DNA from: Pseudonocardiaceae bacterium
GTDB lineage: Bacteria > Actinomycetota > Actinomycetes > Mycobacteriales > Pseudonocardiaceae
DNA: 64,000 bases
Reading direction: 5' to 3'
NCBI GenBank assembly: GCA_009379815.1
Contig: WHSY01000002.1
Coordinates: forward strand, 22,074-86,073
The position numbers were made by a program, and so were the translations under genes. This document shows, in pieces, positions 18,252 to 39,523 of the stretch; position 1 is the stretch's first letter, and each line of letters begins with the position of its first letter. The notes under the pieces are model-generated. The model saw only the letters and a program-made list of their open reading frames with translations, searched no databases and was not told the origin of the DNA.

Positions 18252-20084
<1,833 letters not shown>

Positions 20085-22634: not shown

Positions 22635-22650
22635 AAAGATAGGTTGTGGC

Positions 22651-25080: not shown

Positions 25081-25099
25081 ATGGCCTCCCTGCGGTCGG

Positions 25100-25147
25100 C
25101 CTCGTGAGTGGCGATACGAGTCATGACTCGTATCGCCACTCACGAGG
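25100..25147. repeat. 48-bp perfect palindrome of the CGTGAGTGGCGATRCGAG family
   Basis: CCTCGTGAGTGGCGATACGAGTCA|TGACTCGTATCGCCACTCACGAGG read directly. It fills most of the 75-nt spacer between the 161-aa gene and nthB. Confidence 0.85.
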
Positions 25148-25155
25148 CGAAGCCA

Positions 25156-25641: not shown

Positions 25642-25693
25642 TACCGGCCTCCTTGTCCTTCTGTCGTTACCGTTGGGTCTGGTGCTCGTTCCG

Positions 25694-25727
25694 ATCGGTG
25701 ATCAAACTGCATCGGTGATCAAACTGC
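25694..25727. repeat. Perfect tandem duplication of 17 bp (ATCGGTGATCAAACTGC x2)
   Basis: Read directly. The second copy contains the stop codon of the small ORF (25719-25721). Confidence 0.85.
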
Positions 25728-25976
25728 GGGGCCCCGGCGTCGGGGCGGTGGTGCCCAGGTCTTGCGGTGGCTGCCCGGCATGGCCTTGAGCACCCGGTGG
25801 CGCACCGACCACGGCAGTGCGTGGTAGACCGGTGCGAAGACCCGCAGCCAGAAGATCTCCTTGGGGCCTCGGGGGGGCCGTGGCGAGCTTGCCCCGTGCC
25901 GGTGGGCGAGCCGCTCGTGCGCGTCGACCAGCAGGTAGTGCTCGGAGTTGGCGCGCAGCCAGCCGGACCAGGACAT
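25719..25976 (-). CDS. Small basic protein (85 aa), possibly MSMEG_0570 (Nit1C NitG-like) family
   Basis: ATG 25976 lies 2 nt after the flavoprotein stop, within track ORF 25719..26006. MSWSGWLRANSEHYLLVDAHERL...FWLRVFAPVYHALPWSVRHRVLKAMPGSHRKTW. The assignment is by size and position only. Confidence 0.45.
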   Translation of the reverse strand: MSWSGWLRANSEHYLLVDAHERLAHRHGASSPRPPRGPKEIFWLRVFAPVYHALPWSVRHRVLKAMPGSHRKTWAPPPRRRGPAV

Positions 25977-25977
25977 C

Positions 25978-27330
25978 TCAGCCCTTCCCCGCCTTGGCCA
26001 GTTCATTCAGACCGTTCGTGGCGGCGACGACGATCGGCTCGTTGAGCGCCCCGATGGGGGGCGAGTAGACATTCTCCATCGTGGACAGGTCGTGCAGGGT
26101 GAAGCCGAACTTCACCGCCATCGCCAGGAAGTCGGCACGTTCCTTGATGCCCTCACCGCCGCCGACCATCTGCGCGCCGATCAGACGCAGACTGCCGGGC
26201 TCGGCGAGCAGCTTCACCTTGATCTTGTGCACACCCGGGTAGTAGCGCGCCCGGGAGATGCCCTCCGCGGTGGCGAGCACGTACGGGATGCCGAGCGCGG
26301 TGGCGGTGGTCTCGCCGAAGGAGGCCCCACCGATGACCCACTTCCCGGCCGGGGTGCCCCAGGGCACGTAGACCGACTGGTAGGTGCGCGATCCGCCGCC
26401 TGCGTTGGTGCCCGCGACCTTGCCCTGGGCGTAGGCGTGGCTGCCGGTCAGGCCCTGCAGCGGGACCTGGGTGAAGCCGTGCGGGATCTCGGTGCAGTCG
26501 CCGGCAGCGAACACGCCATCGGCCGAGGTGGCCATCCGCTCGTCCACCACGATCCCGCCGGTGGTCCCGATGCGGAGGCCGGCCGCCGAGGCCAGCGCGT
26601 TGTTGGGCGTCTTGTGCGTGCACACCACCACGACATCGGCGGGGAACTCCCCGGCCGAGGTCTGTACGCCCCGGACATGACCGCCGTCACCGAGGAACGC
26701 CTCGAGGGTGGTGTTGAAGTGCAGCTTGACCCCCATCTCGCGCCAGGACTCCTCGACGGGCGCCATGATGTCGGGGTCGGCCATCTCCCCCAGCGCCCAG
26801 GGATTCGGGTCGACGAGATGGGTCTCGATGCCCCGGTGGGCCAGCGCGGTCACCATCTCCAGACCGAGCGGGGAGGCGTCGACCACCACGGCGACCTTGG
26901 TCCGGTCGAGGACCTTGTCCCACTCCATCGCCTCGCGGATGTTCTTGACGTAGTACAGCCCCTCGAGGTCGCCCCCCGGCACGCCGGGGTCGGCGTAGTC
27001 GAAGCCCGTGCCCAGCACGAGCCGGTCGTAGGAGACCTCGCCCTCGGCTGCCGCGGTGACGGTCTTGCGGGCGATGTTGAGCGCGGTGACCTCGGTGTTG
27101 TAGTGCACGTCGATGCCGGCGTCGACGTAGGCCTGCTTACCGGCGAGGAACAACCGCTGGAAGTCCTCGATCTCGCCACCATGGACGTACGGGATGCCGC
27201 AGGGGCTGTAGGCGATGTCCTCGTACTCGGTGTAGACGGTCACCTCGGCGTCCGGATCCGCCGCCTTGACACCGCCCGCGGCCCCCAGACCCGCGGCGCC
27301 ACCTCCCACGATCACGGTCCTGCGTGGCAC
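25978..27330 (-). CDS. FAD/NAD(P)-dependent pyridine-nucleotide-disulfide oxidoreductase (single-Cys CoA-disulfide-reductase/NADH-oxidase-like), in the Nit1C flavoprotein position
   Basis: Track ORF 25978..27375. Start moved to GTG 27330 (GAGGAG 5 nt upstream). VIVGGGAAGLGAAG dinucleotide fold and redox Cys context YSPCGIPYVHGG. Confidence 0.8.
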   Translation of the reverse strand: MPRRTVIVGGGAAGLGAAGGVKAADPDAEVTVYTEYEDIAYSPCGIPYVHGGEIEDFQRLFLAGKQAYVDAGIDVHYNTEVTALNIARKTVTAAAEGEVSYDRLVLGTGFDYADPGVPGGDLEGLYYVKNIREAMEWDKVLDRTKVAVVVDASPLGLEMVTALAHRGIETHLVDPNPWALGEMADPDIMAPVEESWREMGVKLHFNTTLEAFLGDGGHVRGVQTSAGEFPADVVVVCTHKTPNNALASAAGLRIGTTGGIVVDERMATSADGVFAAGDCTEIPHGFTQVPLQGLTGSHAYAQGKVAGTNAGGGSRTYQSVYVPWGTPAGKWVIGGASFGETTATALGIPYVLATAEGISRARYYPGVHKIKVKLLAEPGSLRLIGAQMVGGGEGIKERADFLAMAVKFGFTLHDLSTMENVYSPPIGALNEPIVVAATNGLNELAKAGKG

Positions 27331-27442
27331 ACGAACTCCTCTTCCACGACCTAGGATGGTGCCGTCCTTCGGCAAAGACGTTCACCATATGCAATACCGA
27401 TCTACTATACTAATCGCGATCACCGTGTCAAGGAGCGTCAGC

Positions 27443-28060
27443 ATGGCCAGGTCGGCGACCAGCGCGCACGAGCCCGGGCGCGACGGCGGGCTCGCCCGCG
27501 ACTGGGAACCGATCGTCGGATCGATCGGGCCGAAGGTGCGCGAGCTGCGCCAGCAGCTCGGGCTGTCGCTACAGCAGCTCGCCCAGCAGTCCGAGGTTTC
27601 GGCAGCGGCCATCCACAAGGTCGAGCGGGGTGACATGGTCCCCACCATCACCACGCTGCTCAAGCTCGCGGCCGCACTCGACCGGCCGATCGGGCACTTC
27701 GTGGAGGACACCACCCCCATAGGTCCGGTGGCTTCCCACGTCCCGGCGGCGGGCCGTACCGCGCTGCGGTCCGCGGCCGACGGGGTGGACCTGGCCGGTT
27801 TCTCGGGGTCTGCGGACAGGTTTCGCACCGCCGGTGCGGTCGCCACCATCGCGCCCGGCGCGCAGGGCACCGGCGCGCAGCGCCCCGGCGAGGACCTGAT
27901 GCTCGTGCTCAGCGGCACGCTGGCCGTCGAGATCGCGGGCGAGCACTACACGCTGCGCAAGGGCGACGCGCTGCACTACCCGACCGATCGGCCGTATTGC
28001 TGGTCGAACCCCGGGCGCTCCGAGACCAGGGCGGTGTGGATCTCGCTGCCTGGCAGCTGA
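27443..28060 (+). CDS. XRE-family HTH regulator with C-terminal cupin domain
   Basis: ATG 27443 (AGGAGCG upstream) in frame with track ORF 27266..28060. LRQQLGLSLQQLAQQSEVSAAAIHKVERGD, then a cupin region GEHYTLRKGDALHYPTDRPYCWSN. Confidence 0.8.
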   Translation: MARSATSAHEPGRDGGLARDWEPIVGSIGPKVRELRQQLGLSLQQLAQQSEVSAAAIHKVERGDMVPTITTLLKLAAALDRPIGHFVEDTTPIGPVASHVPAAGRTALRSAADGVDLAGFSGSADRFRTAGAVATIAPGAQGTGAQRPGEDLMLVLSGTLAVEIAGEHYTLRKGDALHYPTDRPYCWSNPGRSETRAVWISLPGS

Positions 28061-28797
28061 GCCGCTGCCGGCTCGAGCCCGAGACCCGGCTCCAGCCCGA
28101 GACCCGACTCCAGCCCGAATCGCAGCGCGCGGCCGGAGCTGGCCCCCACCCGGTCCAGCCTCGCGAGCGCCTGCGCGGCCCGCACGCGATCGCCGCCGGC
28201 CTGTGCGGCCAGCCAGCTGTGCGCCGGCTCGATGCACTGCCCCCTCGCGGCCCAGGCCAAGAACGCCGCGGCGACATCGGTCGTCACGACCGAGCCGGCG
28301 ACCGCGGCCAGCCCGGGTTCGGCTGCCGCGCCGTGCAGCGCTCGGGCTACCAGCAGCACGCCGGCCAGCACGTCGTCCCCGGAGGGTGTCAGGCCCGGCC
28401 CGCGCCCGCCGATCCTGCCTGCGAGCGCCGCGACACCATCGGACCGCAGCACCGGGCCGAGCCGATCGCCGGTCCCCGGCGGGTGCCGTCGCCGGTATCG
28501 CGCGAGCTCCTCGGCGCCCGGCAGCTGCCCGGTCCAGGTCGGCGCATCGAGGGGCACCGACCACTGCCGACCGTGCAACCCGGTCGGGTCGATGTCCACC
28601 GCGTCGCCCGGTGCCAGCTGCGGCAGCGTCGCCACCCGCAGGTGCAGCGGTCCGGACGGCGCGCGGCCGTCGGTCAGCGCCAGCAGGCCGGCCGGAAAGC
28701 GCAGGTAGGCCGCCGCCCGGTACACCGCGACCACCCGACCGGCCCCGCGGCGCCCCGCGACCCGGCGAGCACCCACACCGACGTCCAGCGTGGTCAT
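27976..28797 (-). CDS. DUF2877-like protein (YlbF/AllH-like)
   Basis: ATG 28797 overlaps the DUF1116 stop (ATGA), in frame with track ORF 27976..29316. GRGPGLTPSGDDVLAGVLL motif; ~273 aa as in YlbF. Its last 85 nt overlap the XRE-cupin gene on the opposite strand. Confidence 0.65.
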   Translation of the reverse strand: MTTLDVGVGARRVAGRRGAGRVVAVYRAAAYLRFPAGLLALTDGRAPSGPLHLRVATLPQLAPGDAVDIDPTGLHGRQWSVPLDAPTWTGQLPGAEELARYRRRHPPGTGDRLGPVLRSDGVAALAGRIGGRGPGLTPSGDDVLAGVLLVARALHGAAAEPGLAAVAGSVVTTDVAAAFLAWAARGQCIEPAHSWLAAQAGGDRVRAAQALARLDRVGASSGRALRFGLESGLGLEPGLGLEPAAAQLPGSEIHTALVSERPGFDQQYGRSVG

Positions 28798-30200
28798 CTC
28801 GCGCGCGCGAGCTCCAGCAGCGCGTCGACGAAGCAGGCCAGCGGCGCGGTCGCCACGCCGGCACCGACCTGTCCCGCTCCGGATCTCGCGTGCAGGATCC
28901 CGGTGTTCACCGTCGGTGTCACCCCCAGCTCGACGACCTGACGGACGTCGACCCCGAGCGGCGTCCCGGAAAAGCCCAGTGGTGGCAGCGTGAAGCGGCT
29001 GCTGCGGCTCGCGCAGATCTGCCGGAACCCCTCGGTCGCCGCGGCGCCGTCGGCCATCGTGCCGCCGAGGAACGCCGCCACTGCCGGGGAGCCCCCGGCG
29101 GCCGGCCCGCCGAGCCCGACGAGCTCGAGTACCGCGCTGTCGCCGATGTCGGGTGCCGCGTCGTCGGGCCCGTAGCCGGAGTAGTACAACGCATCGGCCA
29201 CCGGTGGCGCGTCGGTGACATACCAGGCGTCGGACCCCGGCAGCCGGATGCCGAACGTCGTCCCGTTGCGACTCATCGTGGTCACGATGCTGGAGCCGGG
29301 CACCTGCCCGGCCCATGCGGTCAACGAACGCGCCGCCCCCATCGCCAGGGTGAGGAAGAACAGGTGGTTGCCGGACAGGAACCGGGCCAGCTCCGTCCGG
29401 CTCGGGGCGGGCAGCTCCGCGAGGTGGGGCAGCCAGTTACGGATCAGCAGGTTGGTGGTGGCCTGGGTGCGCATGTGCAGGTCGTCACCCATGGCGACAC
29501 CCTGCGCGGCGAGTCCGAGGATGTCGAGCGAGCCGGCCTGGTCGACGACCTGCCGCAGCGCCGGGCCCGCCACGTCGCGCAGGAAGCGCAACCGCTCGAT
29601 CGCCGCGTCGGTGTCGCGTCCGAACCACGGCACCTCGCCGGGACCCTGGCTGATCGGGGCGAACGCGCGAGTCCCGCCGTCGGGGCAGTCGACGACCCAC
29701 ACCGGCGCCGACGGGCCGATCGCGCTGGCCATCGGCACCACGGTGTCGTGGTGGTTGGCCGGCGCGAGCCCCACCGTGCCGCTCTCGAGCAACCGGTGGG
29801 CCTGCGCCGTGTCCGCCGCCCAACCCTCCGCGACGACCGCCGCCCCCATCGACCGTCGAAGCGGGTCGCACACCTGTGGCCACTCGATCGCGGGTCCGCA
29901 GTGCAGCAGGGTGTTGCCGTCCATCCCCGGCACCACCTCGTCGGCCCGCGCCACCCCGACCAGCCACGGCACGCCCTGGTCGAGGCGGCGCAGCACCTCG
30001 GCGTTGGCCGCGTCCACCTCATCGGCGGCGGTGCCGTAGAGCCGTGCCAGCGCCGCCACGAGCGAGGTGTCACCCCCCGCCGGGATCCGCCAGTCGACCT
30101 GTTGCACCGGGCTGCCCTGGGCGGCCACCGCATCGGCGAACATCGGCAACCCGATGTTGATGACGTCGACCCGCTCGGGCAACGCCAGCTGACCGGGCAT
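28794..30200 (-). CDS. DUF1116-domain protein (YlbE/AllG-like)
   Basis: ATG 30200 shares one nt with the upstream stop (TGATG). MPGQLALPERVDVINIGLPMFADAVAAQGSPVQQVDWRIPAGGD is a typical DUF1116 N-terminus; 468 aa. Confidence 0.75.
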   Translation of the reverse strand: MPGQLALPERVDVINIGLPMFADAVAAQGSPVQQVDWRIPAGGDTSLVAALARLYGTAADEVDAANAEVLRRLDQGVPWLVGVARADEVVPGMDGNTLLHCGPAIEWPQVCDPLRRSMGAAVVAEGWAADTAQAHRLLESGTVGLAPANHHDTVVPMASAIGPSAPVWVVDCPDGGTRAFAPISQGPGEVPWFGRDTDAAIERLRFLRDVAGPALRQVVDQAGSLDILGLAAQGVAMGDDLHMRTQATTNLLIRNWLPHLAELPAPSRTELARFLSGNHLFFLTLAMGAARSLTAWAGQVPGSSIVTTMSRNGTTFGIRLPGSDAWYVTDAPPVADALYYSGYGPDDAAPDIGDSAVLELVGLGGPAAGGSPAVAAFLGGTMADGAAATEGFRQICASRSSRFTLPPLGFSGTPLGVDVRQVVELGVTPTVNTGILHARSGAGQVGAGVATAPLACFVDALLELARAR

Positions 30201-31705
30201 CACGAACCACTCCCATTCGTGTCGTTGACGACGGTCCGGGCGGTGTCGAGCAGTTCCTGTTCGGCCCGGTCGAAGCCCGCCGTGCGCTGTCGAGCCCTGA
30301 CTGCCAGGTCGGCCAGCGTCGTACGCAGCGAGGTGACCATCGTGGCCAGCGCCTCGGGCGCTGCGCCACCCTGCGCGCGGCGTGACAGCACGATCTGCCA
30401 GGGGTCGAGCACCTCCGACAGGTCGGCCCCGGCCAGCCCCCAGGACCGCCCGGTGTGCTCCAGTGCCGCGCGGTCGATCATCTCGCCGGTGATCCCCACA
30501 CCGGGGACCCCCTCGCGGCTGGCCGCCCGAACCGTGTTGCCGACGACCAGGTAGGCGGTGCGGTAGTCCACCCCGCAACGCTGCACGAGATCCTCCGCCA
30601 GGTCCGTGGCCTGCGCGTAGCCACCGCGCAGCTCCTCGGCCATCCGCTCGGGATTGACCCGCACGGTGCGCACCACACCGGTGATCAGCCGCGTGATCCG
30701 CAACGTCAGGTCCAGCGCGCGCGGGACCTCACCGTAGGCGAAGATCAGGTTGTCACTGCGCGCCGACGGGCTCTTGGTGACGGCCAGGAATCCCGTGAGT
30801 CGTCCGATCAGGACTCCGGACGCACCGCGCACGATGGACAGCGAGTACGGGTTGCGCTTCTGCGGCATCAGCACGCTGGCCCGCGTGTAGGCGTCGGCCA
30901 GATCGACGAAGTCGAACTCGCTGCTGGAGAAGATCTCCAGGTCCTCGCCGAGCTTGCTGAAGTTCGACAGCAGGCTCGCCGCGGTGGCCAGCAGATGGAT
31001 GAGCCCGTCGACCTGCCACATGGCGTCCCGGGTGTGCTCGATGACCCCCTCGAAGCCCAGCATGTTCGCGACGAAGCTGCGGTCATCGAGCAGCCGGGTG
31101 CCGTTCACGCAGCCTGCCCCGCCCGGGCTGCAGTCCACCCAGTCCAGCTCGTCGAGCAGCCGCCGCACGTCGCGGACCGTCGAGTACACGAACGACAGCA
31201 GGTAGTGCCCGAAGGTGGACGGCTGCGCCTGCTGCAGGTAGGTCTGATCGGGCAGCAGCGTCTCGGCGTGCTCGAGGGCCCGCTCGGCGGTCACCTCCGC
31301 GAAGGTGACGGCTTCGTCCGCCAGCTCCGCGAGCTGTCGGCGCAGGTGCAGCCGCAGCGCGATCCGGACCGCCTCCCGGCGCGGCCGCCCGGCGTGCAGC
31401 CAGCCTGCGAGGTCACCGATGCGGGCGACGAAGTAGTGCTCCCGGGAGTTGTAGGGCTCGCCGAGGGCCGGGTCGTACGGGAAGTCCTCGGCCGCCGTCT
31501 GCTGCACATCGAGCAGCAGGCCCAGCAGCCGGCGCTGCGCGTCGGCGGGCACGACACCGCGCCGGCCGAGGTCGAGCACGTGGGTGATGTCGGCCAGGTT
31601 CAGGCCGTTGTGCAGGAACTCCGCGTCGGCGTTCTCCAGGCTGAAGCCGGAATCCACCAGTTCCTGCGCGGGGCCGTCCTGCGGCGGGCCCTCCTGACGG
31701 GTCAT
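30200..31705 (-). CDS. Argininosuccinate-lyase-like enzyme (aspartase/fumarase superfamily)
   Basis: ATG 31705 overlaps the upstream stop (ATGA). Signature region TRASVLMPQKRNPYSL and QTYLQQAQPSTFGHY; 501 aa. Confidence 0.8.
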   Translation of the reverse strand: MTRQEGPPQDGPAQELVDSGFSLENADAEFLHNGLNLADITHVLDLGRRGVVPADAQRRLLGLLLDVQQTAAEDFPYDPALGEPYNSREHYFVARIGDLAGWLHAGRPRREAVRIALRLHLRRQLAELADEAVTFAEVTAERALEHAETLLPDQTYLQQAQPSTFGHYLLSFVYSTVRDVRRLLDELDWVDCSPGGAGCVNGTRLLDDRSFVANMLGFEGVIEHTRDAMWQVDGLIHLLATAASLLSNFSKLGEDLEIFSSSEFDFVDLADAYTRASVLMPQKRNPYSLSIVRGASGVLIGRLTGFLAVTKSPSARSDNLIFAYGEVPRALDLTLRITRLITGVVRTVRVNPERMAEELRGGYAQATDLAEDLVQRCGVDYRTAYLVVGNTVRAASREGVPGVGITGEMIDRAALEHTGRSWGLAGADLSEVLDPWQIVLSRRAQGGAAPEALATMVTSLRTTLADLAVRARQRTAGFDRAEQELLDTARTVVNDTNGSGS

Positions 31706-32709
31706 GCGGCTCCTCTCGTGGCACTGTCGAGCGCGGCGACGGCGGGGATCAACCCGCCGGTGTGCCAGTAGACGACCGGCCGCGACTCCCGGCGAGGCAG
31801 CCGGTCGGCGGTCGCCGCGAACGCCTTGGCGCCGTAGGTGTCGTCGAGCAGCAGCCCCTCGGTGTGCAGCGCCAGCCTGCCGCGGTCGCGGTCGGCCTCG
31901 GCGGCGACACCGAAGCCGGGCCCGCGACCGTCGACGATCTCCAGCAGGTCGAGCCGGGGCGCTGCCGCGCCCAACGCGCTCGCGCACTGCTGCGCCAGTT
32001 CCGCGATGCGCGACGAGATCTCCGCCGGGGGCCTGCTGACCGAGATGCCGAGCACCGGCCATTCCTGTCCGGTGACGGCGAGCCCCGCGAGCAGCCCGGC
32101 GCAGCTGCCGCCGGACCCGACGGCCAGCGCCACGAACGCCGGTGGCCCGTCGAGCTGGGCGACGAGCTCCGCGGCCGCCACCGCGAACCCGGCGGCGCCC
32201 ACTGCGGTGGACCCGCCACGAGGGACCGGATACGGGCGACGACCCTGGGACGCGAGCGCGGCGGCACGGTCCTCGACGGCGGCGTCGACGGCGTCGCGCC
32301 GGTCATCGCCGGTGCGGTGCAGCCGTGCCCCTGCCGCCGCGGCGAGCGCGATGTTGGGAGCGGCCGTGATGTCGCCCCACACCACGAGCTCGCAGTCGAG
32401 CCCGGCGGCGCGGGCGGCCAGCGCCGCGGCCGGGCAGAAGTTCGAGCCGGGGCCGCCGCCGGTGACCAGGACGTCGCAGCCTTCGGCCAGTGCGGCGCCG
32501 AGCAGGTACTCCAGCGGCCGGGTCTTGTTGCCCGCTGCGGCGAAACCCGCGAGGTCATCGCGCTTGAGCAGCAGCGGCCCGCAGCGCAGCGCGGCCTCCA
32601 GCCGGTGCGCGCGCACCAGCGGGGTGGGCAGCACGGCCAGCGGGAAGCGCGGCCACGGGACCTGTGGCAACGGGACCCGTGGCCGTGCAGGGGGTGGCGG
32701 CACAGTCAT
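31702..32709 (-). CDS. PLP-dependent ACC-deaminase / D-cysteine-desulfhydrase-family enzyme
   Basis: ATG 32709 overlaps the upstream stop (ATGA). PLP-lysine motif LLKRDDLAGFAAAGNKTRPLEYLL and a C-terminal LDDTYGAKAF. Confidence 0.8.
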   Translation of the reverse strand: MTVPPPPARPRVPLPQVPWPRFPLAVLPTPLVRAHRLEAALRCGPLLLKRDDLAGFAAAGNKTRPLEYLLGAALAEGCDVLVTGGGPGSNFCPAAALAARAAGLDCELVVWGDITAAPNIALAAAAGARLHRTGDDRRDAVDAAVEDRAAALASQGRRPYPVPRGGSTAVGAAGFAVAAAELVAQLDGPPAFVALAVGSGGSCAGLLAGLAVTGQEWPVLGISVSRPPAEISSRIAELAQQCASALGAAAPRLDLLEIVDGRGPGFGVAAEADRDRGRLALHTEGLLLDDTYGAKAFAATADRLPRRESRPVVYWHTGGLIPAVAALDSATRGAA

Positions 32710-34091
32710 GTCCACCTGCGCTGCGATGTCCACTCGGCGGCCTCGGCATCCCGGGCGGCATGCGCCCTGGCCAGCACCGTGTCGACCATGGTGGCGGCGG
32801 TGTCGATCGCGGGCCGCTGCATCCAGGAGCGCACGTCCGCGGCGCTGGCCACCCCGCGCTCGACCACCCCGCGCTCGACCAGCCCGCGACCCGGGTCGCC
32901 GCCGTCCTCGCGTAGCACCTCGTGCAGCAGCTGCTGGGCGCGATGCTTGCCGATCCGCGACGACAGCCCGGCCAGCACCCGCTCCGAGCTCAGCGCCTCG
33001 CCGTAGCGGTCGAGGTTGGCCGCCATCGCGCCGGCATCGACCTCGAGACCGGTGACCAGCTGTCGACCCAGCGCCAGCGCCGCCCCGGTCAGCAGGCATA
33101 CCTCGGGCAGTGCCGCCCACTCGGCCTTCCAGGCACGGCCGTCGCGCTCGCCGGCGGCGACCATCCCCTCGGTGAGCACCCCGGCCGAGGAGCGGGCCAG
33201 CCGGGCCAGCGTGTCGAGGTGCTCGCTGCCCTCGGGGTTGCGCTTGTGCGGCATGGTGATGCTGCTGACCGCGCCGGGTGGGGCGGCTTCCGCGAGCTCG
33301 CCGATCTCGGGCCGGGCGAGCTCGTAGACCTCGGCGCCGATCCGCGCGAGCGTGCCGGCGACCATCGCGAGCAGCTGGCCGAAGTCGGCGATGCGGTCCC
33401 GGCAGGTCAGCCACGAGATGCCGGGATCGGCCAGCCCCACCTCGGCGCAGAACATCCTGCGCAGCTCGGTGGCTGCAGGGCCGAAGAACCCCAGCGCGCC
33501 GACCGCGCCCCCGAGCTGGCCGACCAGCCAGCGGTCCCGGCCGTCGCGCAGCCGCTCGACGTGCCTGCGCACCTCGTCGGCCCAGGACGCAGCCTTGAGC
33601 CCGAAGGTGACGGGGGCACCCGGCTGGCCGTGGGTGCGGCCCGCCATGGCCGTGTCGCGGTGGGCGGCGGCCAGCTCGAGCAGTGACGCCTCGAGCGCGC
33701 GCAGGTCACGCCACACCACGGTGCCGACCTCGCGCATCACCACCCCGAACCAGGTGTCGGTGACGTCCTGGACCGTGACACCGAAGTAGACGTGCTCGCG
33801 GGCGTGCTCGGGCAGCACCCGCATCAGGCCACGGATGAGGCCCAGCGTCGAGTGCGAGGTCAGCCGGGTCTGCTCGGCCACGTAGTCCATGTCGAGCGCG
33901 TCGGCACGGGCAGCGGCGATCGCGTCGGCCGAGGCCGCCGGGATGATGCCCAGCCGGGCCTGCGCCCGAGCCAGCCCGGCCAGGATGTCGCACCAGGACT
34001 GCAGCCGGGCCCGCTCGTCGAACACCGCCGCGAGTTCCGGCGTGGCCCACAGGTGGGCGTACATGACCGAGTCGGTCAGGCGGGTGCCCAT
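32706..34091 (-). CDS. Adenylosuccinate-lyase / carboxymuconate-cycloisomerase-like enzyme (aspartase/fumarase superfamily)
   Basis: ATG 34091, in frame with track ORF 32706..34724. Signature VSSITMPHKRNPEGSE and MAGRTHGQPGAPVTFG; 461 aa. Confidence 0.8.
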   Translation of the reverse strand: MGTRLTDSVMYAHLWATPELAAVFDERARLQSWCDILAGLARAQARLGIIPAASADAIAAARADALDMDYVAEQTRLTSHSTLGLIRGLMRVLPEHAREHVYFGVTVQDVTDTWFGVVMREVGTVVWRDLRALEASLLELAAAHRDTAMAGRTHGQPGAPVTFGLKAASWADEVRRHVERLRDGRDRWLVGQLGGAVGALGFFGPAATELRRMFCAEVGLADPGISWLTCRDRIADFGQLLAMVAGTLARIGAEVYELARPEIGELAEAAPPGAVSSITMPHKRNPEGSEHLDTLARLARSSAGVLTEGMVAAGERDGRAWKAEWAALPEVCLLTGAALALGRQLVTGLEVDAGAMAANLDRYGEALSSERVLAGLSSRIGKHRAQQLLHEVLREDGGDPGRGLVERGVVERGVASAADVRSWMQRPAIDTAATMVDTVLARAHAARDAEAAEWTSQRRWT

Positions 34092-34975
34092 GCGGGCTCC
34101 CGTTGCGCGGCAAGGCGGCCCAGCGCCGTGCGGACCTGCTCGAGCGAGGAACCCCACGGCACCGAGACGCAACCCTCGCTCTCCTCGAGGTGCTCCTCCT
34201 GCAGGCAGCATTTGGACAGCACCGGCCCGGCGACCGCGACCGCCGCACGCCGCGGGCAGAAGTCGACGTGGGGAGCGTCGTCGCCGTAGAACCAGCGGTG
34301 GATCTGCCGCGAGCGGGTGCATCCCAGCAGCGTCCAGTCCGCTCGGTCCGGTCGTTCGTCCAGGTACGAGATCGTCGCGCCCGGCACCTCGCCGCCCGAT
34401 CCGCGGCAGGGCAACAGGTAGTGATCCGCAGGGCGGGTGGCGGCGAGTTCGGCCAGGTCGACCAGCTCGGCCACCAGTTCGATCGGGGGCAGCTCCTCGG
34501 CGACCGTGAGCACCCGGCGAGCCTGGTCGAGCAGCTTCGCCTGCTCCGGGGGCACCACCTCGCGCACCACGATGCGCAACGGGCGGGGGTCGATGATGAA
34601 GTTCACGTGCCCGGACCGACCGTGCACCACGACGGCGCGGGTGCCGGGCGCCGCTGCGGCTGCCGTGGCCGCCAGCATCGACGGGATGGCGGTGTCGGTC
34701 TCCGGCTCGTGCACGTAGGCGCACTCGTCGGGGCCTGCGAGCAGCGCGACGTCGACGACGGGAGTGAACAGCTCGGTATCGGACTCGCGGGTGACGGCGA
34801 GCAGCGCGGTCTGCGCGCCACGGCGCGCGACGACGAACCGGGTGCGCCGGTAGACCTCCCTACCCAGGAAGTGCGCGCGCAGCGAGGATTCCGCGAGCTC
34901 GACACCCGCCGGCAGCGTCGCGACGGACACCCCGCGGTAACGGCCGGGCACCACGTTCGGACCGTGCGGGATCAC
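34076..34975 (-). CDS. Hypothetical 299-aa protein with Cys-rich C-terminal region
   Basis: GTG 34975 overlaps the comA-like stop (GTGA); its 3' end overlaps the next gene by 16 nt. C-terminal cysteines in LLPCRGSGG, LLGCTRSRQIHRWFYG, DFCPRR, SKCCLQEEHLEESEGCVSVPWG. No family recognised. Confidence 0.55.
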   Translation of the reverse strand: MIPHGPNVVPGRYRGVSVATLPAGVELAESSLRAHFLGREVYRRTRFVVARRGAQTALLAVTRESDTELFTPVVDVALLAGPDECAYVHEPETDTAIPSMLAATAAAAAPGTRAVVVHGRSGHVNFIIDPRPLRIVVREVVPPEQAKLLDQARRVLTVAEELPPIELVAELVDLAELAATRPADHYLLPCRGSGGEVPGATISYLDERPDRADWTLLGCTRSRQIHRWFYGDDAPHVDFCPRRAAVAVAGPVLSKCCLQEEHLEESEGCVSVPWGSSLEQVRTALGRLAAQREPAWAPA

Positions 34976-35775
34976 GCCGGGCCCGATCCCACCGCGCCGT
35001 GCTCGCCGTTGCCCAGCACGCCATCCCAGACAGCGGTGTCCGATCGCAGCCCGAGGCGCAGCGTCTCGACGCCGAGCACGTCGGACAGTGCGACGTTGCC
35101 CAGGTTGACACCGGTCCCGAACCGGCGGACGAACCACGCCTGCTGGGCGGTTCGCGGCGCTTCGAAAATCACCCGGTCACGTCCCACCGCGGCGACCACC
35201 GCCTCGACCACGTCGGGCCGCACCCGTCCGGAGGAGGTGAAGGTCCCGACCGTGCCACTCTGCCTGCCCTCGGTGACCACGAGCTGTGCCCCCGCGTCGA
35301 GATCCGAGGACGCCTCGGCCGGCCAGTGCCGTGCCGCCAGCGCCTCGTCGGGCGACTTCGTGCCGACCTCGGCCAGCACGACGAAGTCCCTCGCGGCGAG
35401 CCGGATCAGCTCGCGCTTGTCGTGCAGGCTCATCGGTACTGTGCCGCGGGAGACCTCGACGTGGTCGAAGCCGGTCGCTGCGGCCCACTGCAGGCACTCG
35501 CCGGCCCTGCCCTGCGCCCAGGCGAGCTCCAGCAGGGTCCCACCCAGGCAGCTCGACACCCCGTGCTCGGCGAGCAACGCGAGCTTGGTCTCCAGGGCGC
35601 CGTCGAGATACGCGACGCCCCAGCCGACCTTCCAGATGTCGATGTACTGCGCGCCCGAGGCCAGCACGTCGGCCGCGGCCGCCGGCCCGACACCGGGGTC
35701 GATGACATGGGTCAGCCCGGTGCTGCGCGGCTTGGGCGTACGGTCGGGCAGCTCGAGGAAGCTCGCGTGGGCCAC
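34972..35775 (-). CDS. comA: Phosphosulfolactate synthase (ComA) family protein
   Basis: ORF 34972..35775 (GTG). FLELPDRTPKPRSTGLTHVIDPG, IDIWKVGWGVAYL, VLGVETLRLGLRSDT match ComA-family blocks. No SD; a TACCAT hexamer lies 6 nt upstream, so the transcript may be leaderless. Confidence 0.8.
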   Translation of the reverse strand: MAHASFLELPDRTPKPRSTGLTHVIDPGVGPAAAADVLASGAQYIDIWKVGWGVAYLDGALETKLALLAEHGVSSCLGGTLLELAWAQGRAGECLQWAAATGFDHVEVSRGTVPMSLHDKRELIRLAARDFVVLAEVGTKSPDEALAARHWPAEASSDLDAGAQLVVTEGRQSGTVGTFTSSGRVRPDVVEAVVAAVGRDRVIFEAPRTAQQAWFVRRFGTGVNLGNVALSDVLGVETLRLGLRSDTAVWDGVLGNGEHGAVGSGPA

Positions 35776-35828
35776 GCTTCGATGGTAGATCAGATAGTGG
35801 AGAAGCGCCTACTATCAGAAACGTACTC

Positions 35829-35870
35829 CGTGAGTGGCGATGCGAGTCCTTGCTCACATCACCGCCACGG
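35829..35870. repeat. Degenerate copy of the CGTGAGTGGCGATGCGAG palindrome family
   Basis: The left arm CGTGAGTGGCGATGCGAG (35829-35846) is identical to the arm at 56531. The partner arm has decayed (CTCACATCACCGCCACGG). It lies in the comA/PurM-like divergent region. Confidence 0.45.
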
Positions 35871-35892
35871 CAGCGATGCTCATGGAGGTGGC

Positions 35893-36843
35893 ATGCTCGG
35901 CGAGATCGTCGAGGCGGTGCGGTCGCACGCGGGGATGCGCGACAAGTCCGCGATCGGCATCGTCTCCGAGGTCCTCGGCGCGAGCGACTGGCTCGCCGGT
36001 CCGGGTGACGACGGCGCCGTCGTCGACGCCTTCGGGGGCAAGGTCGTGGCGTGCGGGGAGGCACTGTGGCCACCGTTCGTGCGGGCGGACCCGTTCGGGG
36101 CAGGCTTCGCCGCGGTGCTGACCAACATCAACGACCTCGCGGCGATGGGCGCGACTCCGCTGGGCATCGTCGACACCATCGTCGCTTCCGAGGACACGGC
36201 CCGCGCCGCGCTGCGGGGCATGCGTCACGCAGGCGAGCTCTACGACGTGCCGATCCTGGGCGGGCACCTGACCCCGCACGACGGCGAACCCGCGGTCTCC
36301 GCGTTCGGTGTCGGCAGCACCGGCCACCCGCTGTCGGTCACCCGGATCATCGCCGGGCAGAGCCTGCTGATGTGCTGCGCCCTCGACGGGCAGCTGCGTC
36401 CCGACTTCCCCTTCTTTCCCGCCTTCGAGCAGCGCGGTACCCGTTGCGCCGGGGATGTGCGGCTGCTCGCGCAGGTCGCGTCCTCCGGTGCCTGCGTTGC
36501 GGCCAAGGACGTCAGCATGGCCGGCCTGGTCGGTTCGCTGGCGATGCTGCTCGAGTGGGGCGGGTTCGGTACCACCGTCGACCTCGATGTGCTGCCCGTC
36601 CCGGCCGGGGTCGGCCTGCCGCGGTGGCTGACCTGCTTTCCCAGCTTCGCCTTCCTGCTGTGCGTCCCGCCCGGCCGGGAGCAGGAGTGTGCCGGGCAGT
36701 TCCACGACCGCGGCCTGCACGCGGCGACGATCGGCCGGATCGACACCTCGGGCGAGCTGAGGTTGCGGCTGGGCTCGGCGTCGGCGACGGTGCTCGACAC
36801 CAGCGATGCCCCGGTCACCGGCCTGGGCAGGGCGCAGCGGTGA
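35893..36843 (+). CDS. AIR-synthase-related (PurM-like) protein, probably sll0787 (Nit1C NitF-like) family
   Basis: ATG 35893 (GGAGGTGG upstream), in frame with track ORF 34999..36843. GPGDDGAVV and NINDLAAMGATPLG PurM-type motifs; 316 aa. Confidence 0.75.
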   Translation: MLGEIVEAVRSHAGMRDKSAIGIVSEVLGASDWLAGPGDDGAVVDAFGGKVVACGEALWPPFVRADPFGAGFAAVLTNINDLAAMGATPLGIVDTIVASEDTARAALRGMRHAGELYDVPILGGHLTPHDGEPAVSAFGVGSTGHPLSVTRIIAGQSLLMCCALDGQLRPDFPFFPAFEQRGTRCAGDVRLLAQVASSGACVAAKDVSMAGLVGSLAMLLEWGGFGTTVDLDVLPVPAGVGLPRWLTCFPSFAFLLCVPPGREQECAGQFHDRGLHAATIGRIDTSGELRLRLGSASATVLDTSDAPVTGLGRAQR

Positions 36844-36857
36844 CGAGGCCGGTGGCG

Positions 36858-37211
36858 CTACCCGGCGGCGGCGAAGACCGGGTTCCGCGGGGCGGCAGCT
36901 GTGTCGCCGCGACTCGACCGCGACGCGATGTCGGTGGCCAGGCTGAAGACCCGCAGCATCCGGTCGGGGTCACGCCACTGGTGGCACAGCGCGAAATCCA
37001 ACCACTGCTGCGGCGGCACGAGCGGCTCGCGGGAGTAGTCCAGCTCCCCCCAGGTGACCGCGAGCTCGAAGAGCTCGAGCAGCTCGTCGCCATCGGTCTC
37101 CACCGCGAGCAGCCGATCATGATGCCGTCGCAGCGCGGCATCGACACAGCCACCCCGGCAGGTGGCGAGGCCCACGACGTCTTCCTGACGGACGCAGAGC
37201 GTTGGCGACAC
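36858..37211 (-). CDS. Hypothetical 117-aa protein
   Basis: ORF 36858..37211; GTG preceded by GGGAGG at 5-nt spacing. No family recognised. Convergent with the PurM-like gene. Confidence 0.45.
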   Translation of the reverse strand: MSPTLCVRQEDVVGLATCRGGCVDAALRRHHDRLLAVETDGDELLELFELAVTWGELDYSREPLVPPQQWLDFALCHQWRDPDRMLRVFSLATDIASRSSRGDTAAAPRNPVFAAAG

Positions 37212-37319
37212 GGTGACCTCCCTGGCAGCGACGACGTCAGGTCATGATGGGCATCACGATCGCCGACGTGATTGCACACGTGTTGCAGTGCCGGTGAAGC
37301 CGAGCTGGAGGTGGCGCAG

Positions 37320-37715
37320 GTGACCGATCGGACCGTGCAGTCGCGGTGGGACGGCGGGCTGCGCGCCGTGGTGCAAGCCGGTGGTTTCGAGCTCACCGTG
37401 GACGAGCCGGAGTCCATGGGCGGCACGGATCGGGGGCCGCAACCGACCGATCTGCTGCTGGCGTCGGTCGCGTCCTGCTTCACCCTCGCGATGGCCTACA
37501 GCGCAGCCAAGCGCGACATCGAGCTCGAGGGCCTCGACGTCGACGTCACCGGCCGCTACGACGGGCCGCGGTTCTCCCGGTTGCTGATCGAGGTCCGGGC
37601 GCAGCGGCCGGCGGGCGCCGAGCTGGCCCGGCTGGTCAGCGCGGCAGAACGGGTCTGCTACGTGACCAACACGCTACGGCGCCCTCCCGAGATCGAGATC
37701 GTCGGCGCCAGCTGA
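37320..37715 (+). CDS. OsmC/Ohr-family peroxiredoxin-like protein
   Basis: Track ORF 37272..37715. Start moved to GTG 37320 (GGAGGTGG upstream). GGTDRGPQPTDLLLASVASCFTLAMAY and ERVCYVTNTL hold the two conserved Cys. Its 3' end overlaps larC by 42 nt (convergent). Confidence 0.75.
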   Translation: MTDRTVQSRWDGGLRAVVQAGGFELTVDEPESMGGTDRGPQPTDLLLASVASCFTLAMAYSAAKRDIELEGLDVDVTGRYDGPRFSRLLIEVRAQRPAGAELARLVSAAERVCYVTNTLRRPPEIEIVGAS

Positions 37716-38846
37716 CTCCCGTCGTGCCCTGTCGGCCACCACCCGCACGGGCACGTCGAGCGCCACGGCCGCCGCCACCACGTCGTCGTGCTCGGGCTTG
37801 GCTCCCCACGGACCGCGCTTGACCCTGATCGGGTGGCCGTCGACGTCGACGGTGCTGTCGCTGCGGGGCAGTGCCAGCCGGTCGACGTGGCTTCGGCGAA
37901 GCCCGAGGCTGCCGGTCTCGGCGAGCACGAGCCGCTCGAGCTGCGCGGCACGTTCCGGCGGGGCGAGCACGTGCACGGTGTGCGCCGGGCGGTTCTTCTT
38001 CATCACGATCGGCGAGACCCAGACGTCCGCCGCTCCGGCCTGCAGCGCCACGCCGATGAGGTGGCCGAGCACCTCGCCGGTCACGTCGTCGACGTTGGTC
38101 TCGAGGAGCACGAACGACGCGGCGGTCGGCGAACGCGAACCCAGCACGACCTGCAGCACGTTGGGCCGGTCCTCGAACTGCTTGCTGCCCGCGCCGTAGC
38201 CCGCGCCTCGCAGCGTCATCGCCGGCAGCGCCCCGTACCGCGCACCGGCCGCGAGCAGCAGGGCGGCGCCGGTCGGGGTGACGGTCTCGCCGTCGAGCCC
38301 GGCACCGGTGATCTCCGCGCCCGCCTCGGCGAGCAGGGCCAGCGTGGCGGGAGCGGGAGCGGGCAGCGCGCCGTGCCTGGTGGCCACCGAGCCCGCACCC
38401 AGCCCCAGCGGGCCGCAGTGCACTTCGGTCACGCCGAGTAGGTGCAGGGCGGCCGCGACCCCCACGGTGTCGACCACGGTGTCCAGCCCGCCGATCTCGT
38501 GCAGCGCAACCTGGTCGGGATCCGCGGCGTGCAGCCGCCCCTCGACGCCGGCGATCGCCGTCACGGCGGCGGCGGCCAGCTGCGCCACCGGCGCCGGCCG
38601 GGCGTGGCCGATCAGCTCGAGGAGCTGCGCCGCCCGCCGCTCGGTCGCCGTGTCGGTCACCCCCACGACCGCGCGGGTAGCGCCGAGACCGCCCCGCCGG
38701 ACGCGCTCCGCGGCCAGCGTCCAGCCGGTGATCCCGGTGCTCGCGACCGCGTCACGGATGCCGTCGACCGGGGCGCCGAGGTCGATGAGGGCACCGAGCA
38801 GCATGTCCCCGGAGATCCCGTTGAACGGGTTGCACCAGAGGATCAC
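37674..38846 (-). CDS. larC: Nickel-pincer cofactor biosynthesis protein LarC (nickel insertion)
   Basis: GTG 38846 overlaps the larB stop (GTGA), in frame with track ORF 37674..38936. VILWCNPFNGISGDMLLGALIDLGAP is the typical LarC N-terminus. Confidence 0.8.
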   Translation of the reverse strand: MILWCNPFNGISGDMLLGALIDLGAPVDGIRDAVASTGITGWTLAAERVRRGGLGATRAVVGVTDTATERRAAQLLELIGHARPAPVAQLAAAAVTAIAGVEGRLHAADPDQVALHEIGGLDTVVDTVGVAAALHLLGVTEVHCGPLGLGAGSVATRHGALPAPAPATLALLAEAGAEITGAGLDGETVTPTGAALLLAAGARYGALPAMTLRGAGYGAGSKQFEDRPNVLQVVLGSRSPTAASFVLLETNVDDVTGEVLGHLIGVALQAGAADVWVSPIVMKKNRPAHTVHVLAPPERAAQLERLVLAETGSLGLRRSHVDRLALPRSDSTVDVDGHPIRVKRGPWGAKPEHDDVVAAAVALDVPVRVVADRARRESAGADDLDLGRAP

Positions 38847-39523
38847 CGCCGCTCCCGGACCGTCGCGATCCGGTGTGCGGCCATGGCGGCACCGAACCCG
38901 GAGTCGATGTTCACCACGACCACGCCGGCCGCGCACGAGGTGAGCATCGCCAGCATCGGCGTGATCCCGTCGAGTGCAGCCCCGTAGCCCACCGAGGTGG
39001 GGACCGCGATCACCGGGCAGTCCACCAGACCGCCCACCACGCTGGGCAGCGCGCCATCCATGCCGGCCACGCAGATCAGCGCATCCGCGGCGGCCAGGTC
39101 GTCGGTCTCGGCGAGCAGCCGGTGGATCCCGGCCACGCCGACATCGGCCAGCAGCCGGGCGGACAGGCCGATCGCCGTGGCCACTGCCACCGCCTCGGCC
39201 GCGACCGGCCCGTCCGAGGTACCGGCCGAGGCCACCACGACCCGGAACCCCCGCGACCGGGCGTGCCGCCAGCTCAGCACGCGGGCGACCTCGTCGTAGC
39301 TGCCGCCGGGCAGCTGTGCGGAAACCTCGTCGGCCTTCTGCGGCGCCAGCCGCGTCGCCAGCACCGGCCCGGTGTTGGCCTCGAGCAGGCTCCCGACGAT
39401 CGCGACGATCTGCCCGGGGGCCTTGCCCGGCCCGTACACGACCTCCGGAAGGCCCTGACGGCTCTCCCGGCCCACGTCCGGGCGGGCGAAGCCGAGATCG
39501 GTGAAGCCACCCCCACCGCTCAC
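38843..39523 (-). CDS. larB: Nickel-pincer cofactor biosynthesis protein LarB (PurE-like carboxylase/hydrolase)
   Basis: GTG 39523 overlaps the larE stop (GTGA). VVVASAGTSDGPVAAEA and VAGMDGALPSVVGGL PurE-like motifs; 226 aa. Confidence 0.8.
   Translation of the reverse strand: MSGGGGFTDLGFARPDVGRESRQGLPEVVYGPGKAPGQIVAIVGSLLEANTGPVLATRLAPQKADEVSAQLPGGSYDEVARVLSWRHARSRGFRVVVASAGTSDGPVAAEAVAVATAIGLSARLLADVGVAGIHRLLAETDDLAAADALICVAGMDGALPSVVGGLVDCPVIAVPTSVGYGAALDGITPMLAMLTSCAAGVVVVNIDSGFGAAMAAHRIATVRERR

Follow-up and report, generated by a model that had tools for sequence, protein, structure and literature searches.

A predicted coenzyme M operon embedded in a Nit1C/gpr-type nitrogen cluster of Pseudonocardiaceae

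Why would a soil actinobacterium carry the genes of a complete pathway to coenzyme M (CoM) among genes of nitrogen starvation and nitrile metabolism? A 2024 paper confines the known CoM biosynthesis genes to methanogenic archaea and to aerobic bacteria that use alkenes (PMC11507031). The question is raised by a stretch of 64,000 nucleotides from a Pseudonocardiaceae bacterium (assembly GCA_009379815.1, contig WHSY01000002.1, positions 22,074 to 86,073; hereafter the window), in which a minus-strand operon encodes homologues of the five Xcb proteins of bacterial CoM biosynthesis. A sequence-only reading of this DNA had proposed that the operon may make CoM or a related sulfonate or thiol, and at the sequence level the proposal is borne out by the best matches of the proteins to Xcb models and by a gene order shared with Nocardioides JS614. 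We consider it rather probable that the operon is a complete CoM pathway acting as a module of a Nit1C/gpr-type cluster, with CoM or a very close analogue as the dedicated small thiol of that system. The xcb operon itself is, judging from its proteins, of the known bacterial CoM kind. Its embedding in a Nit1C/gpr cluster, its coupling to allG and allH and the absence of nearby epoxide enzymes are new relative to the searchable literature; full-text searches found no publication tying CoM or xcb to Nit1C, Pseudonocardia, nitrile hydratase or OsmC.

The xcb operon and its predicted enzymes

Genes were called from third-position G+C and then refined manually, the G+C content of the window being 72%. 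The operon runs on the minus strand from 35775 to 27976 and comprises seven genes, each overlapping the next at stop and start (Table 1). The first five are contiguous, overlapping and, on this evidence, co-transcribed; they lie between 30200 and 35775, where the sequence-only reading had placed them. The five peptide strings quoted there are exact (at 35698-35757, 35035-35061, 33234-33266, 32500-32532 and 30848-30871), and the overlaps given as 1-16 nt measure 4, 16, 4 and 4 nt at the junctions of the five genes. The end of the operon at 30200 did not hold, as coupling to allG and allH adds 2.2 kb that had been missed. What had been described as an unknown 299-aa gene is XcbA, the fifth enzyme of the pathway. 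The gene order B-A-D-E-C is identical to that in Nocardioides JS614 and M. chubuense NBB4, and the five-gene block recurs in more than 50 genomes, so that the grouping is far beyond chance.

The architecture given in the sequence-only reading for Xanthobacter (a ComA homologue, two aspartase/fumarase-superfamily enzymes and a D-cysteine-desulfhydrase-like pyridoxal phosphate (PLP) enzyme) agrees with the published pathway. In Xanthobacter, XcbB converts phosphoenolpyruvate and sulfite to phosphosulfolactate, XcbC eliminates phosphate to form sulfoacrylate, XcbD adds cysteine to sulfoacrylate, the PLP enzyme XcbE decarboxylates and cleaves, and XcbA, a [2Fe-2S] protein, reduces sulfoethanethioaldehyde to CoM (Wu et al. 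2022; PMC9457059). By homology, the XcbB of the window would add sulfite to phosphoenolpyruvate to give phosphosulfolactate, from which XcbC would eliminate phosphate to leave sulfoacrylate. XcbD would then add the thiol of L-cysteine to form 3-sulfopropionyl-cysteine, XcbE would decarboxylate this adduct and cleave its C-S bond to release sulfoethanethioaldehyde, and the Fe-S protein XcbA would reduce the aldehyde to CoM (2-mercaptoethanesulfonate).

The proteins were compared with those of the clusters on plasmids pXAUT01 (Xanthobacter Py2), pNOCA01 (JS614) and pMYCCH.01 (NBB4). The Pfam families found along the operon are ComA, DUF7714, Lyase_1, PALP, Lyase_1 with ASL_C2, and AllG. For each Xcb protein the top curated NCBIfam hidden Markov model (HMM) is the corresponding Xcb model and not ArgH, PurB or DcyD. 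Identities are 35-45% to Py2 and 42-51% to JS614. The Py2 and JS614 proteins, both from validated CoM systems, are themselves only 36-46% identical, so HMM scores below a cutoff are not by themselves evidence of another function. Most columns that are invariant among the alkene-linked enzymes are kept (XcbB 60/70, XcbA 88/105, XcbD 134/178, XcbE 83/115, XcbC 114/140), corresponding to 74-86%, with XcbE the exception at 72%.

XcbB belongs to the ComA family (Pfam ComA, 264 bits) and scores 226 bits with the archaeal equivalog TIGR03849. The motifs KxGWG, GGTLxE, EGRxSG, FEAP and ETLRLGLRSDT are conserved. All motif blocks align with the Bacillus subtilis YitD structure 1u83 (177 bits) and with Methanocaldococcus jannaschii ComA, 1qwg (148 bits). 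Identity is 42% to the Py2 protein and 50% to that of JS614. The alternative that the ComA-like enzyme adds a different nucleophile to phosphoenolpyruvate finds no support, since the entire downstream pathway is conserved.

XcbA is the pathway member best conserved by HMM score (NF052538, 339 bits against a cutoff of 150, with no next-best match; Pfam DUF7714, 315 bits). Residues C190, C219, C240, C256, C257, H123 and H226 are invariant across 56 homologues and include cysteines suited to a [2Fe-2S] or other redox site, and by analogy with Xanthobacter the protein is predicted to be a [2Fe-2S] sulfoethanethioaldehyde reductase catalysing the last step of CoM formation. Its AlphaFold2 model is confident (mean predicted local distance difference test, pLDDT, 92.8). 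Foldseek comparison of the model with the PDB gave no match at E<=1e-3 (template modelling score, TM, <=0.22), so the fold offers no mechanistic lead, and comparison of the sequence with the PDB gave chance matches only. The family is small, with 451 representatives at E<=1e-3 among 1.84 billion cluster representatives.

The PurB/CMLE-like lyase is of the XcbD type: it scores 570 bits with NF052536, ahead of a PurB subfamily at 395 and pcaB at 278, and is 44% identical to the Py2 and 51% to the JS614 enzyme. Its SS loop reads GAVSSITMPHKRNP. XcbC scores 420 bits with NF052535 and 291 bits with argH. Its SS loop fits the pattern R-[AS]-S-x-[LI]-[LM]-P-[QN]-K-R-N-P common to Py2, JS614 and NBB4, as opposed to the GTSS of true argininosuccinate lyase (ASL), which marks it as XcbC-type. 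XcbE is the weakest member (NF052537, 237 bits, with CuyA next at 188 bits). It is 41-42% identical to its Py2 and JS614 counterparts, which are 45% identical to each other, and its PLP lysine (GNKTR) aligns with that of the D-cysteine desulfhydrase structures 7ysk and 4d8t. A catabolic sulfonate reading, suggested by the second place of CuyA, was rejected: the full biosynthetic set, XcbA included, is conserved in biosynthetic order.

Compared with xcbABCDE of Xanthobacter Py2 (PMC9457059), the window has the same five protein families in contiguous, co-oriented genes, with the XcbC SS loop and the XcbA cysteines kept. It differs in order (A-B-C-D-E in Py2), in being joined to allG and allH, and in belonging to a separate phylogenetic clade; moreover, the Py2 genes lie on an alkene megaplasmid with xecA-E, whereas the present locus is probably chromosomal and has no xecA-E or alkene monooxygenase adjoining. 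The ethene/vinyl chloride plasmids of JS614 and NBB4 share the gene order, the identity levels given above for JS614 and a single-Cys flavoprotein of the coenzyme A disulfide reductase (CoADR) family beside the operon. Unlike the window, they carry an epoxyalkane:CoM transferase (EaCoMT) on the same or a companion plasmid, with short-chain dehydrogenases/reductases and CoA-transferases beside xcb, and are without Nit1C genes, OsmC, allG/H and nitrile hydratase. The archaeal route (ComA-ComB-ComC-ComDE, MMP16/ComF) has the first step in common with the operon, but its later enzymes have no counterpart there; beyond phosphosulfolactate the operon follows the bacterial route.

Linkage to Nit1C/gpr genes across genomes

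The sequence-only reading had placed the operon in a nitrogen cluster. The nitrogen part of that description stands; what it missed is that the cluster is specifically a relative of Nit1C and of the M. smegmatis gpr cluster (MSMEG_0565-0572). Pseudomonas requires Nit1C in order to assimilate cyanide, and most genes of the cluster have no known role (PMC11049912); the gpr genes are induced more than 500-fold by nitrogen starvation via GlnR and are needed for peroxide resistance (PMC6039565). In common with Pseudomonas nitABCDEFGH, Synechocystis sll0783-0787 and gpr, the window encodes homologues of Sll0783, the radical SAM protein, the GNAT protein and the MSMEG_0565 glycosyltransferase, as well as a probable counterpart of the sll0787 AIR-synthase-like protein, whose best model is TIGR04049 at a score below the cutoff. 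It has nitrile hydratase in place of the Nit6803 nitrilase and a CoADR-type enzyme in place of the MSMEG_0569-type flavoprotein. By tblastn there was no match in the window to a Nit6803-type nitrilase (NitC), and no match to the MSMEG_0569-type flavin oxidoreductase (NitH) was listed for the scanned window proteins (for the CoADR-like gene, among the best 25 of 34-36 families). The Nit1C-type genes do not form one compact operon but are spread over several operons on the two strands (11.9-17.8 kb and 23.5-36.8 kb), separated by a 5.5-kb insertion of unrelated genes. The Nit1C/gpr clusters as described are without the xcb operon, OsmC and the AllFGH set with carbamate kinase found here.

To examine recurrence, 52 loci (L001-L052) were collected by a scan for XcbA-like proteins with one genome per species and flanks of up to +/-10 kb, and neighbours were counted by tblastn of all window proteins. 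Most loci come from Pseudonocardia and other Pseudonocardiaceae, the remaining carriers being Micromonosporaceae, Nocardioidaceae, Jiangellaceae, Euzebyales, Intrasporangiaceae, Acidimicrobiales and Dormiibacterota. The neighbour conserved most often is OsmC (47 of 52), followed by a homologue of the 81-aa open reading frame (ORF) beside xcbB or OsmC (44), the CoADR-like gene (35), MSMEG_0572 (33), the GNAT gene (26), the AIR-synthase-like gene adjoining xcbB (25), the XRE regulator (24) and AllG directly after xcbC (18). A SARP/BTAD regulator is found close to xcb in 15 loci. Of the 52, 44 have one or more Nit1C/gpr-type markers, taken as Sll0783/MSMEG_0572, radical SAM, GNAT, AIR-synthase-like, nitrile hydratase and AllF/G/carbamate kinase genes, as do 34 of the 37 loci of at least 15 kb. 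The link between xcb and Nit1C appears with different gene orders in Acidimicrobiales, Euzebyales, Jiangellaceae, Intrasporangiaceae and Micromonosporaceae; loci outside Pseudonocardia keep the same gene content in rearranged order, and four of them (L042, L046, L047, L048) are compact. The complete xcb set was found in at least 50 species-level genomes, with many cultured Pseudonocardia among the carriers.

The pairing extends to proteobacteria. On a plasmid of Methylocystis iwaonis, OsmC and xcbBADEC abut a typical Nit1C set of Nit6803 nitrilase, radical SAM, GNAT, AIR-synthase-like and Pnap_2097 genes. A search with the Methylocystis XcbA led to a proteobacterial clade comprising Ensifer, Sphingobium, Hoeflea, Ruegeria and a widespread marine lineage (80 collection blocks). 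Sphingobium chungbukense has nitrilase, radical SAM, GNAT, AIR-synthase-like, OsmC, xcbBADEC and XRE-cupin genes together. In Ruegeria THAF57 the set comprises nitrile hydratase, OsmC, AllG, AllH, ComA, DUF7714, XcbD and XcbC, followed by Pyr_redox, a 162-aa protein, a GT4 glycosyltransferase, AllF and carbamate kinase. The marine lineage combines radical SAM, GNAT, AIR-synthase-like, AllG, xcbBADEC, XRE-cupin, nitrile hydratase, OsmC and Pyr_redox genes, and has a BTAD regulator beside ComA. OsmC thus accompanies xcb in Methylocystis, Sphingobium, Ruegeria and the marine lineage as well, and the XRE regulator in the Sphingobium and marine loci.

A neighbour-joining tree with Kimura distances was constructed from concatenated XcbBADEC of 42 taxa (1751 columns), a procedure in which long-branch attraction is possible. 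The bipartition of Py2 and JS614 from all Nit1C-linked sets has a bootstrap of 100/100. The alkene-linked side unites a proteobacterium (Py2) with an actinobacterium (JS614), and the Nit1C-linked side unites actinobacteria with alphaproteobacteria, suggesting that the relatedness of Xcb proteins follows genomic context and not taxonomy.

The sequence-only reading had stated that the window holds no epoxyalkane:CoM transferase or alkene monooxygenase, and this was confirmed: there is no EaCoMT (XecA/EtnE) homologue in the 64 kb, and the only di-iron monooxygenase is the phenylacetyl-CoA epoxidase PaaABCDE. EaCoMT was likewise found in none of the 52 loci, nor on two whole Methylocystis plasmids (276-320 kb) with xcb and Nit1C, so no linkage to alkene or epoxide genes was seen within these limits. 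In all, in the 59 loci with context examined, xcb stands without CoM-using epoxide enzymes nearby and is tied to the Nit1C/gpr cluster. A search of a 5.8-billion-protein collection with EaCoMT is uninformative on Pseudonocardia, its best 120 matches all being at least 75% identical to XecA and the named ones mostly proteobacterial.

Neighbouring genes and regulation

The coordinates of the features are collected in Table 1. The coupling of xcbC to allG and allH joins the CoM genes to homologues of a carbamoyltransferase: the allG-like product (Pfam AllG, 218 bits) is a homologue of an oxamate carbamoyltransferase subunit, and the allH-like gene is identified by Pfam PF11392 (73 bits, cutoff 25), a tblastn match to Ruegeria AllH and a third-position GC of 0.86-0.94. 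Together with FdrA/AllF and carbamate kinase the window holds homologues of the whole AllFGH set. In E. coli, AllFGH is described as oxamic transcarbamylase (PMC11326118) and YbcF as a catabolic carbamate kinase (PMC9843812). Unlike in E. coli, there are no allantoin genes in the window, allG and allH are coupled to xcbC, and allF and carbamate kinase are 12 kb away, so that the substrate here is probably not oxalurate.

Table 1. Features of the xcb locus and its neighbourhood, in window coordinates
Feature	Coordinates	Strand	Remarks
SARP/BTAD-ATPase-TPR regulator	8719-11910	+	NCBIfam SARP-type matches
MSMEG_0567/Sll0786 GNAT	11911-12387	-	TIGR04045, 99 bits (cutoff 68)
MSMEG_0568 radical SAM	12384-13478	-	TIGR04043, 402 bits (cutoff 304)
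Small ORF	13646-13951	-	between MSMEG_0568 radical SAM and carbamate kinase
Carbamate kinase	14099-15076	+	PRK12352, 303 bits (cutoff 266)
FdrA/AllF	15073-16617	+	FdrA, 412 bits (cutoff 433)
MSMEG_0565 glycosyltransferase	16695-17798	+	TIGR04047, 332 bits (cutoff 260)
Nitrile hydratase accessory protein	23490-23825	-	TIGR03889, 75 bits, above cutoff
Nitrile hydratase alpha	23822-24418	-	TIGR01323, 300 bits, above cutoff
Nitrile hydratase beta	24415-25029	-	TIGR03888, 160 bits, above cutoff
MSMEG_0572/Sll0783 (NitB, DsrE-like) nitrogen-starvation response protein	25156-25641	-	TIGR04044, 223 bits (cutoff 110)
85-aa ORF	25719-25976	-	between CoADR-like gene and MSMEG_0572 homologue; no NCBIfam match
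CoADR-family flavoprotein	25978-27375	-	single active-site Cys (YSPCGIPY); start between ~27330 and 27375
Sigma-70-like promoter TTGACA-16-TATAGT	27404-27431	-	upstream of CoADR-like gene; 11/12 consensus positions
XRE-HTH + cupin regulator (PuuR-like)	27443-28060	+	Pfam HTH_3, Cupin_2; convergent with allH; start uncertain
allH-like gene	27976-28797	-	ATG at 28797 overlaps allG stop, 4 nt
allG-like gene	28794-30203	-	start codon overlaps xcbC stop (GTGATG), 1-4 nt
xcbC (ArgH-like lyase)	30200-31705	-	ATG start, 501 aa; 4-nt overlap (ATGA) with xcbE
xcbE (PLP enzyme)	31702-32709	-	ATG start, 335 aa; 4-nt overlap (ATGA) with xcbD stop
xcbD (PurB/CMLE-like lyase)	32706-34091	-	ATG start, 461 aa; 16-nt overlap with xcbA
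xcbA (DUF7714)	34076-34975	-	GTG start, 299 aa; 4-nt overlap (GTGA) with xcbB
xcbB/ComA	34972-35775	-	GTG start, 267 aa; first operon gene
Palindrome GATAGT-N12-ACTATC	35793-35816		117-bp divergent xcbB/AIR-synthase-like promoter region; candidate operator
sll0787-type AIR-synthase-like (PurM superfamily)	35893-36843	+	TIGR04049 best, 243 bits (cutoff 321); divergent from xcbB
81-aa ORF	36858-37103	-	no Pfam or NCBIfam match
OsmC-related protein (thiol-dependent peroxidase family)	37311-37715	+	NF041052, 68 bits; Ohr, SACOL1771 weaker

The CoADR-like gene, the 85-aa ORF (tblastn matches in 37 loci, 62-74% identity) and the MSMEG_0572 homologue form a separate unit. With TIGR03385 the flavoprotein scores 252 bits against an equivalog cutoff of 579; it may work like its family but should not be filed as a CoADR. 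It shares with the CoA-disulfide reductase/NADH oxidase/persulfide reductase family the Pyr_redox_2 fold and a lone redox Cys close to the N-terminus, within an SxxC-type motif, and differs in its conserved partners, which are xcb, the 85-aa ORF and the DsrE-like protein. CoADR-family enzymes act through a Cys-S-S-thiol mixed disulfide. The sequence-only reading had seen in this protein a possible small-thiol redox partner, an idea that gains support from synteny, given the frequency of the gene near xcb, its presence in Ruegeria and the marine lineage, and its homologue in JS614 and NBB4. In alignments, the Cys motif of the flavoprotein corresponds to YGLCGLPY in the FAD oxidoreductases beside xcb in JS614 and NBB4 (33% identity), and the occurrence of a single-Cys flavoprotein beside xcb in both contexts hints that a partnership with CoM predates the split of the alkene and Nit1C contexts.

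Between xcbB and the AIR-synthase-like gene lies the palindrome, of which there is one in the window against 0 expected; no further copy with up to two mismatches was found elsewhere in the window. The exact pattern occurs in eight related loci, just upstream of xcb genes in seven, and in L029 and L030 it stands just upstream of xcbA. It is perhaps an operator for the conserved XRE-cupin regulator. This regulator gene and allH converge, sharing about 85 nt at their 3' ends (27976-28060). The sigma-70-like site is the only one in 25000-38000, where 0.4 are expected. The GlnR box GTnAC-n6-GnAAC occurs 0 times in the window, leaving no sequence evidence of GlnR control there; an Rfam scan of the window found only a tRNA at 61181-61253 and no riboswitch upstream of xcb, and a terminator scan of 25-38 kb found none.

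Several further observations were made around the cluster. The second-best family of the AIR-synthase-like protein is methanogenesis marker 2 (161 bits), a PurM-like protein of unknown function that occurs in CoM-using methanogens. LarC, LarB and LarE, of the nickel-pincer nucleotide cofactor, are encoded at 37674-40359 (-) and adjoin OsmC and xcb, an arrangement repeated in some 20 Pseudonocardia loci; of the scanned genes of the window, none was recognised as a LarA-type user of the cofactor. The Nit1C-type genes are split by an unrelated block at 17872-23310 (~5.5 kb) with VanZ-like, DUF222, glyoxalase, FMN reductase and TetR genes, in which an FAD monooxygenase is divided into overlapping ORFs (20151-20789 and 20786-21427) and looks like a frameshift or pseudogene. 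Also in the window are PaaABCDE (779-4604), a copper amine oxidase and ArgS (in the 779-8638 region), a copper ATPase, a copper chaperone and a CsoR-type repressor (41291-44095, read from the sequences only), and a two-domain radical SAM protein with a CofH/MqnC C-terminal region, taken as FbiC-like (49694-52048). The remaining genes are unrelated housekeeping genes.

Product of the operon and its possible role

The likeliest reading is a genuine operon for CoM or a near relative, working for a system of nitrogen starvation, nitrile metabolism or redox; both the product and its service to a Nit1C/gpr-type system are inferred from homology and gene context. Several points weigh against this conclusion. 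Canonical Nit1C clusters in Pseudomonas, Synechocystis and M. smegmatis work without xcb, so CoM is not essential to Nit1C chemistry in general. The 52-locus counts are dominated by Pseudonocardiaceae and are not phylogenetically independent. The xcbE gene is missing in L010, L047 and the Ruegeria locus L057, where xcbD is followed directly by xcbC, and no xcbB was seen in the fetched part (<=10 kb on each side) of the loci L026, L029 and L030 from Pseudonocardiaceae metagenome-assembled genomes. XcbC, XcbD, XcbE and ComA fall under the NCBI curated cutoffs (420/575, 570/600, 237/450 and 226/280). In XcbE, the motif GRGPGFGV carries GFG in all Nit1C-linked homologues, including that of Methylocystis, against GYG in the three alkene-linked enzymes. 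Finally, the EaCoMT search covers 64 kb here and +/-10 kb in the other genomes, and an epoxide pathway may lie elsewhere.

Some of these points would suit a different product: a related sulfonated thiol or intermediate, such as the sulfoacrylate-cysteine adduct or 2-mercapto-3-sulfopropionate, which the radical SAM, GNAT, AIR-synthase-like and glycosyltransferase proteins would build into a larger metabolite. The tyrosine of the GYG motif, which we take to be the active-site Tyr of 1-aminocyclopropane-1-carboxylate (ACC) deaminase and D-cysteine desulfhydrase, is replaced in the Nit1C-linked XcbE, and the change may be a specificity switch; of XcbC, XcbD and XcbE, all of them below their cutoffs, XcbE is also the weakest, and in Ruegeria L057 a Cys/Met-metabolism PLP enzyme stands in the cluster in place of the missing xcbE. 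The Nit1C-linked enzymes form a separate clade, and the MSMEG_0565-type glycosyltransferase shows distant similarity to MshA and BshA, two enzymes of thiol biosynthesis. We nevertheless regard such a product as unlikely. In by far the most loci the complete set of five Xcb functions is encoded and co-translated. Substitutions specific to the clade are rare and for the most part conservative, and the proteins have diverged from the validated enzymes no further than Py2 and JS614 have from each other. XcbA, whose only known role is the final reduction to CoM, is the best conserved of the five.

It is very unlikely that the operon is an ordinary supplier of CoM to an epoxide, alkene or vinyl chloride pathway elsewhere in the genome, with the Nit1C neighbourhood accidental. 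All described bacterial CoM pathways serve alkene or epoxide metabolism (PMC11507031), the inspection covered part of each genome, and in the alkene clusters of JS614 and NBB4, too, xcb has a CoADR-like flavoprotein beside it. Against an accidental neighbourhood, the linkage of xcb, Nit1C and OsmC recurs in unrelated phyla in rearranged orders, EaCoMT is lacking in the window, the 52 loci and two complete Methylocystis plasmids, xcbC is translationally coupled to allG and allH, and the alkene-linked sets form a clade of their own. A chance juxtaposition of housekeeping ArgH, PurB and D-cysteine desulfhydrase genes with a ComA gene, without a dedicated pathway, is effectively refuted: the ArgH-like protein does pass the generic argH cutoff (291 against 279.5 bits), but Xcb models outscore the housekeeping ones throughout, its SS loop has the XcbC-type Arg, and the five genes overlap start to stop and stay together in over 50 genomes from several phyla.

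If the operon makes CoM for the Nit1C/gpr-type system, the CoADR-like flavoprotein could keep CoM reduced or handle its mixed disulfide, and OsmC, as a thiol-dependent peroxidase, could use CoM as reductant, a role that fits the peroxide phenotype of gpr. A more specific and hypothetical idea, to which we give a slim chance, is that CoM serves catalytically as the thiol carrier in a cycle that scavenges cyanide-type nitrogen. In such a cycle, the turnover of OsmC would generate CoM disulfide or Cys-S-S-CoM, or the CoADR-like enzyme would carry it, and cyanide would cleave the disulfide to S-cyano-CoM. Nitrile hydratase would hydrate this to S-carbamoyl-CoM, which AllFGH would phosphorolyse to carbamoyl phosphate and free CoM, and carbamate kinase would yield NH3, CO2 and ATP. 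Where the cluster is of the nitrilase type, direct hydrolysis of S-cyano-CoM would release NH3, CO2 and CoM. The idea draws on the coupling of xcbC to allG and allH, and the distribution of genes fits it: where nitrile hydratase is in view, AllG, FdrA or carbamate kinase is also present in 11 of 12 loci, and of two nitrilase loci one is without AllG, FdrA and carbamate kinase and one has FdrA.

Were such a cycle to exist, the Nit1C cluster, 20 years old, would gain a chemical logic, CoM would acquire a third biological role, and the Nit1C-linked lineage might be the source from which alkene degraders recruited xcb. The pairing of xcb with Nit1C in dozens of bacteria points to an undescribed role of this small thiol. 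If CoM is made, annotation should not take XcbA-family genes as markers of alkene or vinyl chloride degradation, and the pairing would bear on the origin of the bacterial CoM pathway. Actinomycetota would in that case have a new low-molecular-weight thiol beside mycothiol and ergothioneine, with a candidate dedicated reductase in the CoADR-like protein and a candidate peroxidase in OsmC, and there would be a concrete handle on the function of Nit1C, the chemistry of which has been unknown since 2005.

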